A DNA stretch of 11,218 nt from the IMG/VR virus record IMGVR_UViG_2667528065_000004. The stretch is one strand, 5' to 3'. Positions 7,726 through 11,218 of this stretch are shown in pieces. Origin of the DNA: a virus. Taxonomy: Duplodnaviria > Heunggongvirae > Uroviricota > Caudoviricetes. Both the position numbers and the translations under genes were made by a program. Within the stretch, counting starts at the first letter, position 1. Each line of letters starts with the position of its first letter. Under the pieces are notes generated by a model that searched no databases, was not told where the DNA came from, and saw nothing but the letters and a program-made list of their open reading frames with translations.

Positions 7726-7772
7726 CCATGAGCTTAATATCATTGTCAGCCATGAGCTTAATATCATGTCAG
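7726..7772. repeat. Near-perfect 24-bp tandem duplication upstream of xis (ccatgagcttaatatcattgtcag x2, second copy lacks one t)
   Basis: Seen directly at 7726-7749 and 7750-7772. Confidence 0.8.
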
Positions 7773-7815
7773 ATATATCGGTCACAAACTCCCTCAGCAG
7801 CTAAGAGGAGGACAA

Positions 7816-8090
7816 ATGTCTCGACTAATCACTTTACAGGACTGGGCTAATCACCTTTCCGGACTGGGCTAAAGAAGAATTTGGGGACTTAGCACCAAGT
7901 GAGCGAGTTCTGAAAAAATACGCGCAAGGGAAAATGATGGCCCCACCCGCTAGGGAAAATGATGGCCCCACCCGCTATAAAAGTTGGTCGCTACTGGATG
8001 ATTGACCGAAATTCCCGTTTTGTAGGAACGCTTGCAGAACCGCCAACTCCCAATAAACGCAAACCCAAAACTCCAACGGATAATCGCTGA
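7816..8090 (+). pseudogene. xis: Excisionase (Xis-like) gene disrupted by two duplication-type insertions
   Basis: ATG 7816 with AGGAGG RBS; frame stops after 18 codons. Removing the 22-bp insert (7851-7872, an imperfect copy of 7829-7850) and the perfect 25-bp tandem duplicate (7953-7977 = 7928-7952) restores a continuous ~75-aa Xis-like ORF MSRLITLQDWAKEEFGDLAPSERVLKKYAQGKMMAPPAIKVGRYWMIDRNSRFVGTLAEPPTPNKRKPKTPTDNR whose TGA overlaps the int ATG at 8090. Confidence 0.65.
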
Positions 8091-9232
8091 TGGCTGCTAG
8101 ACCCCGATCTCACAAAATCTCTATACCCAATTTATATTGCAAATTAGATAAGCGAACCGGAAAGGTATATTGGCAATACAAACATCCACTATCCGGTCGT
8201 TTTCATAGCTTAGGAACTGATGAGAATGAAGCAAAACAAGTTGCTACTGAAGCAAATACCATTATTGCTGAACAACGTACCCGACAAATATTAAGCGTCA
8301 ATGAGCGTCTAGAAAGAATGAAAGGCAGGCGTTCAGACATTACGGTGACAGAATGGCTTGATAAATATATTTCTATCCAGGAGGACAGGCTGCAACATAA
8401 TGAACTAAAACCCAACTCCTATCGGCAAAAAGGTAAACCCATTCGTCTTTTCCGTGAGCATTGTGGAATGCAACACCTCAAGGATATTACCGCACTTGAT
8501 ATTGCCGAAATAATTGATGCTGTAAAGGCTGAAGGTCATAACAGGATGGCGCAAGTCGTGAGAATGGTGTTGATCGACGTCTTCAAAGAAGCACAACACG
8601 CAGGACATGTTCCGCCAGGATTTAACCCAGCGCAGGCAACAAAACAACCGCGAAATCGAGTAAACCGCCAAAGATTATCACTGCCCGAATGGCAGGCAAT
8701 ATTTGAAAGCGTAAGCAGACGGCAGCCCTATTTAAAATGCGGCATGCTACTTGCTCTTGTTACTGGACAACGTTTAGGCGATATCTGCAATTTGAAATTC
8801 TCTGATATATGGGACGACATGTTGCACATTACTCAGGAAAAAACCGGTTCAAAACTTGCTATTCCGCTTAGCCTGAAATGCGATGCTCTGAATATTACCC
8901 TTCGTGAAGTTATATCTCAGTGCAGGGATGCTGTTGTTAGTAAATATCTGGTCCATTACCGTCACACTACCTCTCAAGCAAACAGAGGAGACCAGGTTTC
9001 TGCAAATACTCTTACAACGGCTTTTAAAAAGGCCAGGGAAAAATGTGGCATAAAATGGGAGCCAGGAACTGCGCCCACATTTCATGAGCAGCGATCTCTG
9101 TCAGAACGGTTATATCGGGAACAGGGTCTGGATACGCAAAAGTTGTTAGGTCATAAATCCAGAAAAATGACCGACCGATACAATGATGATCGTGGTAAAG
9201 ACTGGATTATCGTAGATATCAAAACAGCATAG
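8090..9232 (+). CDS. int: Tyrosine recombinase / phage integrase (e14 IntE / phage 21 Int type)
   Basis: Intact 380-aa ORF MAARPRSHKISIPNLY...; C-terminal catalytic region with HxxR and Tyr (LGHKSRKMTDRY); adjacent to the attachment site in icd. Confidence 0.9.
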   Translation: MAARPRSHKISIPNLYCKLDKRTGKVYWQYKHPLSGRFHSLGTDENEAKQVATEANTIIAEQRTRQILSVNERLERMKGRRSDITVTEWLDKYISIQEDRLQHNELKPNSYRQKGKPIRLFREHCGMQHLKDITALDIAEIIDAVKAEGHNRMAQVVRMVLIDVFKEAQHAGHVPPGFNPAQATKQPRNRVNRQRLSLPEWQAIFESVSRRQPYLKCGMLLALVTGQRLGDICNLKFSDIWDDMLHITQEKTGSKLAIPLSLKCDALNITLREVISQCRDAVVSKYLVHYRHTTSQANRGDQVSANTLTTAFKKAREKCGIKWEPGTAPTFHEQRSLSERLYREQGLDTQKLLGHKSRKMTDRYNDDRGKDWIIVDIKTA

Positions 9233-9242
9233 AAAATAGCCA

Positions 9243-9279
9243 GTTTTGGGGAAGGGTTTTGGGGAAAGTTTTGGGGAAG
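9243..9279. repeat. Three direct repeats of GTTTTGGGGAA (9243-9254, 9256-9267, 9268-9279) between the int stop and the icd 3' end; candidate integrase arm-type sites
   Basis: Seen directly. Location next to int and the att region is consistent with P'-arm-type binding sites. They could also belong to the same duplication phenomenon seen elsewhere. Confidence 0.45.
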
Positions 9280-9294
9280 ATTTTACATCATCAT

Positions 9295-9324
9295 AAAACA
9301 ACGGGCGTGTTATACGCCCGTTTC
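9295..9324. terminator. Rho-independent terminator, best oriented for icd (minus strand), possibly bidirectional for int
   Basis: Perfect 8-bp stem acgggcgt (9301-9308) / acgcccgt (9314-9321), 5-nt loop. On the minus strand it is followed by UGUUUUAUGA, 25 bp downstream of the icd stop. Confidence 0.65.
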
Positions 9325-9348
9325 AATATTTAACACATGTAGTAGTGA

Positions 9349-10700
9349 TTACATATTCTTGATGATCGCGTCACCAAACTCTGAACATTTCAGCAGCAGT
9401 TTAGCGCCTTCCATCAGACGTTCGAAGTCATAGGTTACGGTCGGCGTTGGCGTTGATTGCGCCTTCCATACCTTTAACAATCAGGTCTGCGGCTTCAGTC
9501 CAGCCCATATGGCGCAGCATCATCTCAGCGGAGAGAATAATAGAGCCTGGGTTTACTTTGTCCTGTCCGGCATATTTCGGCGCAGTACCGTGGGTGGCTT
9601 CAAACAGGGCGCATTCGTCACCGATGTTTGCGCCAGGGGCGATACCGATACCACCAACCTGCGCTGCCAGGGCGTCAGAAATGTAGTCACCGTTCAGGTT
9701 CATACAGGCGATAACATCATATTCAGCCGGACGCAGCAGGATCTGTTGCAGGAATGCATCAGCAATCACGTCTTTAATGACGATCTCTTTGCCGGTATTC
9801 GGGTTTTTAACTTTCAGCCACGGGCCGCCGTCGATCAGTTCACGGGCCGCCGTCGATCAGTTCACCGCCAAATTCTTCACGCGCCAGCTGGTAGCCCCAG
9901 TCTTTAAACGCGCCTTCGGTGAACTTCATGATGTTGTCTTTAAACGCGCCTTCGGTGAACTTCATGATGTTGCCTTTGTGCACCAGGGTGTTGACTTCAT
10001 GATGTTGCCTTTGTGCACCAGGGTCACAGAGTCAACGATCGTTAGCAATTGCGTATTCGATCGCTGCACGAACCAGACGTTTGGTGCCTTCTTCCGAACA
10101 CGGCTTAATACCGATACCGCAATGTTCCGGGAAGCGAATTTTCTTCACGCCCATCTCTTCACGCAGGAATTTAATCACTTTCTCAGCGTCGGCAGAGTCT
10201 GCTTTCCATTCGATACCCGCATAAATGTCTTCCGAGTTTTCACGGAAGATAACCATATCGGTCAGTTCAGGGTGTTTAACCGGGCTTGGAGTGCCCTGAT
10301 AGTAACGTACCGGACGCAGGCAGATGTAGAGATCCAGTTCCTGGCGCAGGGCAACGTTCAGAGAGCGAATACCGCCACCAACCGGAGTGGTCAGCGGGCC
10401 TTTAATGGCAACGCGATATTCACGAATCAGATCAAGGGTTTCAGCAGGCAACCAGACGTCCTGACCATAAACCTGTGTGGATTTTTCACCGGTGTAAATT
10501 TCCATCCAGGAGATTTTACGCTCGCCTTTATAGGCTTTCTCGACTGCAGCGTCGACCACTTTCAGCATGGCTGGGGTTACATCTACACCGATTCCATCAC
10601 CTTCAATGTAAGGGATAATCGGATTTTCAGGAACGTTGAGTTTGCCGTTTTGCAGGGTGATCTTCTTGCCTTGTGCCGGAACAACTACTTTACTTTCCAT
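9349..10700 (-). pseudogene. icd: Isocitrate dehydrogenase gene icd, reading frame broken by multiple insertions
   Basis: N-terminal ORF 10032..10700 is Icd ([26 protein letters not shown]...EYAIANDR*). ORF 9428..9769 is the Icd C-terminal region in another frame. The final segment YDFERL...[11 protein letters not shown] ends at 9349. Span is 1352 bp versus 1251 bp for a 416-aa Icd plus stop. The 101 extra bp are accounted for by a 1-bp insertion (~10034), a ~35-bp duplication (9990-10024), a 36-bp tandem duplication (9937-9972), a 22-bp tandem duplication (9841-9862), a 4-bp insertion (~9449-9456) and a CTG insertion (~9397-9405). Confidence 0.85.
9819..10024. repeat. Three tandem duplications inside icd: 22 bp x2 (9819-9840 / 9841-9862), 36 bp x2 (9901-9936 / 9937-9972), ~35 bp x2 (about 9955-9989 / 9990-10024, imperfect at its 5' edge)
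   Basis: Seen directly: cacgggccgccgtcgatcagtt x2; tctttaaacgcgccttcggtgaacttcatgatgttg x2; ttcatgatgttgcctttgtgcaccagggt repeated after a gttgac spacer. Confidence 0.9.
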
Positions 10701-10871
10701 TCACCTCTCCTTCGAGCGCTACTGGTTTGCTCGTCTGCCACCACGTTGCATATGCGTTTGCGTCCTGCGATACGGATGCTTTAGAGCAATTTTTTGTTAA
10801 TGATTTGTAATTGGCTTGTCAATACTACCCTATTGTTTGCCGTCATGAAAGATGCGCGTTATTAGGCTATA

Positions 10872-11218
10872 ATGCGGCAATTCATAATCTCTGAAAATAC
10901 CATGCAAAAAACTTCTTTTAGAAATCACAAGGTTAAGCGATTCAGCTCGCAACGTTCTACCAGACGAAAACCTGAAAACCAGCCCACGCGTGTGATCCTG
11001 TTCAATAAACCCTACGATGTTCTTCCGCAGTTCACCGATGAAGCCGGACGCAAAACATTGAAGCCGGACGCAAAACATTAAAAGAATTCATCCCGGTTCA
11101 GGGGGTGTATGCGGCAGGTCGTCTCGACCGCGACAGCGAAGGGTTACTGGTGCTGACCAATAACGGCGCTTTGCAGGCGCGTTTAACCCAGCCGGGTAAA
11201 CGTACCGGGAAAATCTAG
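10872..11218 (+). pseudogene. rluE: 23S rRNA pseudouridine synthase RluE gene, 5' part, frameshifted by a 20-bp tandem duplication; continues past the window end
   Basis: Translation [63 protein letters not shown] matches the RluE N-terminus as I recall it. gaagccggacgcaaaacatt is duplicated at 11040-11059 / 11060-11079, producing a premature stop at 11079-11081. The downstream sequence encodes the expected continuation ([44 protein letters not shown]) in the original frame. Confidence 0.8.

Follow-up and report, generated by a model that had tools for sequence, protein, structure and literature searches.

Short tandem duplications in a draft E. coli prophage contig are very probably artefacts of genome assembly

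The short tandem duplications at 7725–11079 of the window (the whole stretch of DNA that was analysed, 11,218 nt) are very probably artefacts of the building of GCA_000397365.1, a draft E. coli genome from 2013, in which overlapping pieces would have been joined end to end. The duplications are genuinely present in the deposited sequence; the window is exactly the entire public contig AOQI01000107.1 of this assembly, and the events therefore belong to the deposited record. They are specific to this record, consist of insertions only, are copies of adjacent sequence, and belong to a class that recurs elsewhere in sister assemblies. They are almost certainly errors of draft stitching and not mutations of the bacterium.

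The window was aligned base by base to YP3, the nearest complete E. coli genome, which served as the reference. Positions 52–7724 showed 0 indels and 5 substitutions; positions 7725–11079 showed 12 events, 12/12 of them insertions (24, 22, 25, 1, 3, 3, 4, 22, 36, 35, 1 and 20 nt in 5′ to 3′ order; 196 nt altogether). No deletions were found in the window by this alignment. After removal of the 196 nt, the YP3 sequence was regained over 7725–11079, save for 2 substitutions and the final base. All 12 insertions, including those of 1–4 nt, are direct copies of neighbouring bases (Table 1). A repeat search of the window gave only direct, adjacent repeats, among them a 35-nt-spaced pair (9959–9989/9994–10024), and no inverted pairs of at least 16 nt. 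TRF, the repeat search and the YP3 alignment thus bear out an earlier sequence-only reading, in which duplications and small insertions had been placed at 7.7–11.1 kb. The 1-, 3- and 4-bp insertions that it listed apart from the duplications are indeed present, but are also copies of adjacent bases, and its statement that the unit lengths are not multiples of 3 is wrong for 24 and 36.

Table 1. Tandem copies and related features of the window.
Feature	Position	Details	Basis
Noisy left contig end	1–51	error-laden ∼15–18 nt re-copy of GGTCAGGTCTTCTGC; A>C substitutions; poly-C runs	aligned against YP3 and KC-Dl-1
24/23-nt tandem copy upstream of xis	7725–7772	insertion 7725–7748; first copy with one extra T	TRF period 24
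22-nt tandem copy within xis	7825–7868 (TRF array 7825–7872)	insertion 7839–7860; 3 substitutions in inserted copy; frameshift	TRF period 22
25-nt perfect tandem copy within xis	7927–7976 (TRF array 7923–7977)	insertion 7927–7951	TRF period 25
1-nt copy (C>CC)	8043	xis 3′ end, 47 nt ahead of int start codon	YP3 alignment
int, clean block (+ strand)	8090–9232	1143 nt, 100% identical to YP3	
3-nt copy (GTA>GTAGTA)	9339–9341	directly downstream of icd stop, within 215-bp icd/icd′ repeat	YP3 alignment
3-nt copy (CAG; CAGCAG>CAGCAGCAG)	9391–9393	icd 3′ end	YP3 alignment
4-nt insertion (GGCG = GGTC re-copied, 2 errors)	9443–9446	icd	YP3 alignment
22-nt perfect tandem copy in icd	9819–9862 (TRF array 9819–9865)	insertion 9819–9840	TRF period 22
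36-nt perfect tandem copy in icd	9900–9971 (TRF array 9900–9977)	part of insertion 9923–9993 (71 = 36+35)	TRF period 36
35-nt copy (31 perfect nt and 4 nt with GTTG for GTGA)	9955–10024	overlaps end of 36-nt copy	
1-nt copy (A>AA)	10034	icd; generates stop terminating 222-aa fragment	YP3 alignment
20-nt perfect tandem copy in rluE	11039–11078 (TRF array 11039–11079)	insertion 11039–11058; frameshifts rluE	TRF period 20

The insertions shift the reading frames of xis, icd and rluE. Imperfect copies carry up to 3 differences in 22 nt, against 5 sites at which the 7.6 kb around them departs from YP3, a pattern that does not agree with duplication and later drift. TRF copy numbers of 2.0–2.2 correspond to 0–7 nt of extra homology at the units, which is indistinguishable from chance. 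Two neighbouring bases of the 9443–9446 insertion, 9439G and 9458T, show the alleles that belong to the displaced icd′ copy.

With six TRF arrays in 3.35 kb, the pattern here exceeds chance; from clean E. coli DNA of relatives (∼120 kb) the same filter returned only the iterons of ori, a 180-bp repeat and a weak 21-bp repeat. Event density in the patch is 3.6 per kb, and icd is struck 6–7 times. The non-uniform distribution noted earlier is real (P ∼1.4e-5 for 12 uniformly placed events falling within ≤3314 nt), and int, which had been described as spared, is nucleotide-identical to YP3. A second clean block covers 10035–11038 (P ∼7e-4 for two clean blocks of such length). The first 7.7 kb, read as event-free, is so over 52–7724 and not over 1–51; comparable events in this part, named beforehand as a possible refutation, occur at that extreme contig end only.

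Events are concentrated at 7725–8043 and 9339–10034. A two-copy repeat was rejected as the general cause of these clusters: in YP3 the only such stretch is 9295–9519 (the icd′ remnant), and complete E. coli genomes have the xis stretch and mid-icd once. No support was found for a mosaic-module boundary at 7725, as breaks in homology fall near 7640 or do not occur. The tandem copy at 7725–7772 is missing from YP3 and from the two sister assemblies described below. Four other assemblies end at the 10034 site. Since icd occurs in partial fragments of widely differing length, this coincidence has no control, and a contig break shared at 10034 counts as weak evidence.

Among complete E. coli genomes, 0 of 5,426 have any of the window's events; conservation of each repeat in related genomes, which the sequence-only reading had named as a refutation, was not found for any of them. 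Because of the insertions, best identity to complete genomes is held at 96.9–97.1%, and the unduplicated xis stretch reaches at least 99% identity in 1,626 genomes. The 36-nt junction gave 0 matches in viral, genome and metagenome contig collections.

Two contigs, AOQB01000005.1 and AOQL01000123.1, represent sister assemblies of the same submission series and the same prophage lineage; a lineage-specific exo variant was found only in the AOQI, AOQB and AOQL contigs among 153 billion gene positions. None of the window's events is present in the two sister contigs. Across 28.5 kb these carry six private, insertion-only tandem copies of their own (26, 4 and 31 nt in AOQB; 1, 2 and 18 nt in AOQL). 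One join in bet falls at the identical coordinate in the two contigs, with copies of unequal length (TTAC versus TT); the window is free of events at this point. The clean 26-nt copy of AOQB lies in the same O-gene stretch as the noisy end of the window, ∼30–40 nt from it, and the 31-nt copy of AOQB is compatible with the window's breakpoint at 9391–9393. Each of the three assemblies (AOQI, AOQB and AOQL) gives a different mosaic of the two copies over the 215-bp icd/icd′ repeat. The earlier verdict of “very recent or artificial” can accordingly be kept in its second half, the events being unique to one draft contig and the sisters lacking them yet bearing the same class elsewhere. Biological readings, for instance recent mutation or an int spared by selection, are unsupported.

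We infer that pieces of read size were joined end to end and that thin coverage was the cause. Where a patch had poor support, neighbouring pieces would truly have overlapped by 1–36 nt, the pieces being reads or small contigs of ∼45–105 nt together with three clean blocks (0.4, 1.0 and 1.3 kb). During assembly or gap closing these may have been joined end to end, the overlap being neither recognised nor removed, and each join would then leave a direct tandem copy as long as the missed overlap. Base-call errors near the ends of pieces could account both for missed overlaps and for the imperfection of some copies. An artefact is supported by the absence of the events where the same or the nearest lineage was assembled independently (AOQB, AOQL and the complete genomes), by extra segments that are adjacent direct copies whose removal restores the reference, and by the same error class elsewhere in assemblies of the same pipeline (the six sister copies and 1–51). 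The left contig end is noisy in the same way, and the contig halts inside single-copy rluE, 140 nt past the rluE copy. Untrimmed k-1 overlaps were rejected as a variant, because the overlap lengths range over 1–36 nt. The following counts against the joining account: blind end-to-end joining would be expected to lose some bases too, and 0 such losses were seen; and a repeat does not explain the two clusters.

The library or chemistry might instead have yielded molecules or reads in which the copied segments were already present, as amplification chimeras or noisy gap-bridging reads, and the assembler would have reproduced them faithfully. Insertion-only errors and imperfect copies suit noisy bridging reads, and one bridging read or fragment of ∼3.5 kb would produce an effect limited to a patch. 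Amplification chimeras are mostly inverted, yet the window yielded no inverted repeats of at least 16 nt, and inverted chimeras were rejected on this ground; moreover, the sequence between events is error-free, at 2 substitutions in 3.3 kb, which a noisy long read would not give, and the sisters' shared breakpoint with unequal copy lengths suits joins better than random read errors. An origin in the reads is therefore unlikely. Inherited pseudogenisation, in which the lineage would genuinely have lost the genes xis, icd and rluE as duplications accumulated, agrees with the frameshifts in all three; it is barely credible given events in 0/5,426 complete genomes and in 0/2 sisters with the rare exo allele, and neutral decay would have brought substitutions and deletions, both of which are absent.

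Real and very recent hypermutation in vivo, by low-fidelity, backward-slipping template-switch synthesis (such as break-induced or repair replication) in a patch around the prophage's attL/icd junction that left short duplications only, would be in keeping with clustered events (P ∼1e-5) of one class only, with the extra base changes in some copies that error-prone synthesis might yield, and with few-nt microhomology at some units (TRF copy numbers 2.1–2.2; indistinguishable from chance). It is very unlikely, since the same class of event occurs in the sisters at unlinked sites (O, bet, icd), with one shared breakpoint and differing lengths, which implies a genome-wide rate of 0.2–3.6 events per kb, incompatible with viability. 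In addition, xis, icd and rluE carry multiple independent frameshifts with practically no substitutions, and the contig end shows the same noise. Genuine slippage should leave deletions and a viable density; 0 deletions were found against 12 insertions, at 3.6 events per kb. Even less probable is an error-prone backward-template-switching patch around attL/icd of an icd-integrated lambdoid prophage, arising in a lineage prone to repeated events of this kind; were it real, the sister isolates would bear independent events in O, bet and icd.

End-to-end joining also finds a close parallel in “negative gap” misassemblies, which arise at overlapping contig ends and in gap closing of short-read drafts: these share the short direct re-copies at joins, the restriction to insertions and to one assembly, the clean sequence between joins and the errors near the ends of pieces. 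By comparison, the joins here are unusually dense (12 in 3.35 kb), with overlaps of varying length (1–36 nt). Tandem duplications from replication slippage and flap processing are the mutator signature of the 5′-exonuclease mutants yeast rad27 and E. coli polA; they arise genome-wide, are rare per kb and are accompanied by deletions. Short (∼5–100 nt) direct tandem units, sometimes with few-nt homology at their borders, are common to both, whereas the events here are dense in one patch, never include deletions, are not the same from one sister assembly to the next and hit housekeeping genes destructively again and again. Lambdoid prophages of the e14/phage 21 type integrate at icd and replace its 3′ end. 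The same layout is seen here, with xis–int adjoining icd and, at the opposite end of the prophage, a displaced remnant icd′ (the 215-bp repeat, in YP3), but natural integration duplicates ∼0.2 kb of icd 36 kb away and makes no short tandem copies; none were found in relatives that carry the same prophage.

In the very unlikely case of real events, an unknown localised process that generates duplications would be indicated. As the errors almost certainly stem from assembly and not from mutation, they are a flag on data quality and not on biology, and the value of the finding lies in quality control only. AOQI01000107.1 and at least two sisters (AOQB, AOQL) carry short tandem copies that are spurious and make xis, icd, rluE, bet and O look falsely like pseudogenes. 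As icd is an MLST locus, such copies could mislead MLST typing as well as pseudogene counts, prophage-integrity calls and repeat scans.

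The window was identical over all 11,218 nt to the complete public contig AOQI01000107.1 (GCA_000397365.1); in the record obtained by exact-protein look-up, the reverse complement of this contig corresponded base for base to window 32-11218. The sequence represents the early-left region of a lambdoid prophage of E. coli with icd as insertion site, and the contig starts within the O gene. The closest complete genomes were E. coli YP3, used as alignment reference, and KC-Dl-1.

Features of the window and private tandem copies in the sister assemblies (the latter in coordinates of the respective contig)
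Feature	Coordinates	Strand	Remarks
O, partial, with ori iterons	168-288 (iterons)		
YdaT-like and YdaS-like genes			before S24 repressor
S24 repressor	1623-2378		
317-aa ORF	2440-3393	+	directly downstream of S24 repressor, then kil, gam
bet	4459-5244		
exo	5241-5921		
DUF1317, 250-aa ORF, TraR, DUF4222	6073-6825 (250-aa ORF)	+ (250-aa ORF)	after exo
xis	from 7816		
int	8090-9232		
icd	about 9347-10700	-	
rluE	from 10872		start only
AOQB01000005.1 (L011) tandem copies	1319-1344, 6245-6248, 10657-10687		
AOQL01000123.1 (L012) tandem copies	143, 6224-6225, 11475-11492		

The short duplications described in the sequence-only reading were recovered by TRF as two-copy arrays with periods of 24, 22, 25, 22, 36 and 20, a repeat search of the window additionally gave a direct pair spaced by 35 nt, and global alignment with YP3 agreed. 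In this alignment, window 7725-11079 carried insertions of 24, 22, 25, 1, 3, 3, 4, 22, 71 (36 + 35), 1 and 20 nt, two substitutions and no deletions; window 52-7724 showed five substitutions and no indels. The first 7.7 kb, previously taken to be free of such events, is free of indels from position 52 onwards but not at the left contig end. Compared with YP3 and KC-Dl-1, window 1-51 had 18 nt of additional re-copied sequence together with A>C substitutions and poly-C runs, a noisy re-copy of the same kind. Unit lengths had been said not to be multiples of three, which does not hold for 24 and 36.

Every insertion was a copy of adjacent sequence, and the small insertions (C>CC, GTA, CAG, A>AA), although correctly noticed, do not differ in class from the longer copies. 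The 4-nt GGCG insertion can be read as a re-copy of GGTC containing two errors; likewise, GTTG, the filler in the 35-nt event, can be read as GTGA with two errors. All repeats of the events were direct and adjacent; inverted repeats of at least 16 nt were not found in the window. With the 196 inserted bases removed, the window differed from YP3 over this stretch only by two substitutions and at the last base. The insertions frameshift xis, icd and rluE, and int, rightly reported as spared, is nucleotide-identical to YP3. Imperfect copies carried up to 3 differences per 22 nt versus 5 differences per 7.6 kb elsewhere, which agrees with low-quality read or contig ends but not with duplication followed by drift.

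None of the repeats was conserved among 5,426 complete E. coli genomes. The icd-rluE region was matched in all of them, with the best identity held at 97.1% by the insertions; window 7000-11218 was covered in 1,614 genomes with a best identity of 96.9% (4,022 versus 4,218 bases). In 1,626 genomes the xis stretch occurred unduplicated with an identity of at least 99%, and every complete genome has an unduplicated mid-icd stretch. No exact match to the new junction that the 36-nt copy creates was present in the viral, species-representative genome and metagenome contig collections.

Among indexed assemblies, the exo protein variant of the window occurred in only three contigs: AOQI01000107.1, AOQB01000005.1 (GCA_000397225.1) and AOQL01000123.1 (GCA_000397425.1), which share an accession series. 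Both sister assemblies carry the same prophage beside icd without any event of the window, and have insertion-only tandem copies of their own at other sites. Those of AOQB are a 26-nt copy within O, TTAC within bet and, near the 3' end of icd, a 31-nt copy with one mismatch; those of AOQL are a single nucleotide, TT within bet and an 18-nt copy within icd. As a result, O and bet are interrupted, and the icd product has 410 or 422 aa in place of 416. TT and TTAC lie at the same bet coordinate, at which the window is clean, and the breakpoint of the 31-nt copy is compatible with the CAG event of the window. Spurious tandem copies affect the whole submission series. A 215-bp repeat is shared by the phage-borne icd 3' end (window 9295-9519) and icd', the displaced host remnant (L009:12433-12647), about 36 kb apart in YP3; at fine scale, each of the three assemblies combines the two copies into a different mosaic, and the window has remnant-type bases at 9439 and 9458. 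At an exo site (window 5354, L011:6694, L012:6671), the otherwise near-identical prophages differ: YP3 has T, the window and AOQL have G and AOQB has A, with one and the same protein variant resulting from G and from A. Just upstream of the first duplication, TT>CC at 7416-7417 (second codon of DUF4222) and T>C at 6840 (71-aa ORF) give protein variants absent from all other contigs in a 153-billion-gene index, and therefore may be further assembly errors, not real alleles.

The duplications almost certainly belong to the draft assembly as deposited and not to the organism, and their pattern is non-random. Uniform error, already doubted in the sequence-only reading, gave P of about 1.4e-5 for 12 events within 3.3 kb and about 7e-4 for the presence, within this stretch, of two unaffected blocks each 1.0 kb or longer. 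When the same TRF filter was applied to about 120 kb of related DNA without such events, only the ori iterons, a repeat of 180 bp and a weak one of 21 bp were recovered. The most probable origin is the joining of overlapping sequence pieces with the overlap retained, which is expected to give what was observed: insertion-only events, copies of adjacent sequence, differences between near-identical sister assemblies, a shared breakpoint with different lengths and contig-end noise. Piece lengths between joins (about 98, 105, 92, 1298, 52, 51, 398, 95, 56, 45, 1024 and 160 nt) suggest that a thinly covered patch may have been bridged by individual reads linking three small clean contigs. A fixed k-1 overlap was ruled out by the varying overlap lengths. 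Chimeric or noisy bridging reads, a read-level artefact, are an improbable source, since the sequence between events is free of errors and a breakpoint is shared, neither of which such reads explain well. Real local template-switch hypermutation is more improbable still, being contradicted by the sister assemblies, by the lack of both deletions and substitutions, and by viability arguments; if real, this error class would burden each genome with frameshifts numbering in the hundreds to thousands. Inherited pseudogenisation, contradicted by all comparisons, can practically be dismissed.

The joins were concentrated at 7725-8043 and 9339-10034. No module boundary coincides with 7725, and a simple two-copy repeat accounts for 9295-9519 only. 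In several unrelated short-read assemblies (L004-L007, one from Shigella flexneri), long contigs end within 2 nt of each other in icd at window positions of about 10033-10035, a hint that icd of those strains may contain the boundary of an element or repeat; partial icd fragments occur in many further lengths, however, so that the coincidence with the event at 10034 is uncontrolled. A natural 13-nt x3.4 repeat (AGTTTTGGGGAAG; window 9242-9284), identical in YP3, lies between the int and icd stops and probably represents putative integrase arm-type binding sites of attL.

The 317-aa ORF, of low GC (0.36-0.39), had a full-length match (E 3.4e-86) to PDC-S42, a candidate defence family in PADLOC. 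It also matched PHROG 3243, a family of unknown function, but nothing in Pfam. Its position downstream of the prophage S24 repressor is analogous to that of lambda rexAB, which makes it a probable defence or moron gene carried by the prophage. The DpdA-like assignment of the 250-aa ORF is borne out by PHROG 887 (queuine tRNA-ribosyltransferase), but only over profile positions 11-266 of 509; neither Pfam nor PADLOC gave a match, and in other prophages this slot holds DGQHR, ASCH or methyltransferase genes.

No literature citing accessions of the series was found. The value of the finding is as a data-quality warning for the AOQI/AOQB/AOQL assembly series.
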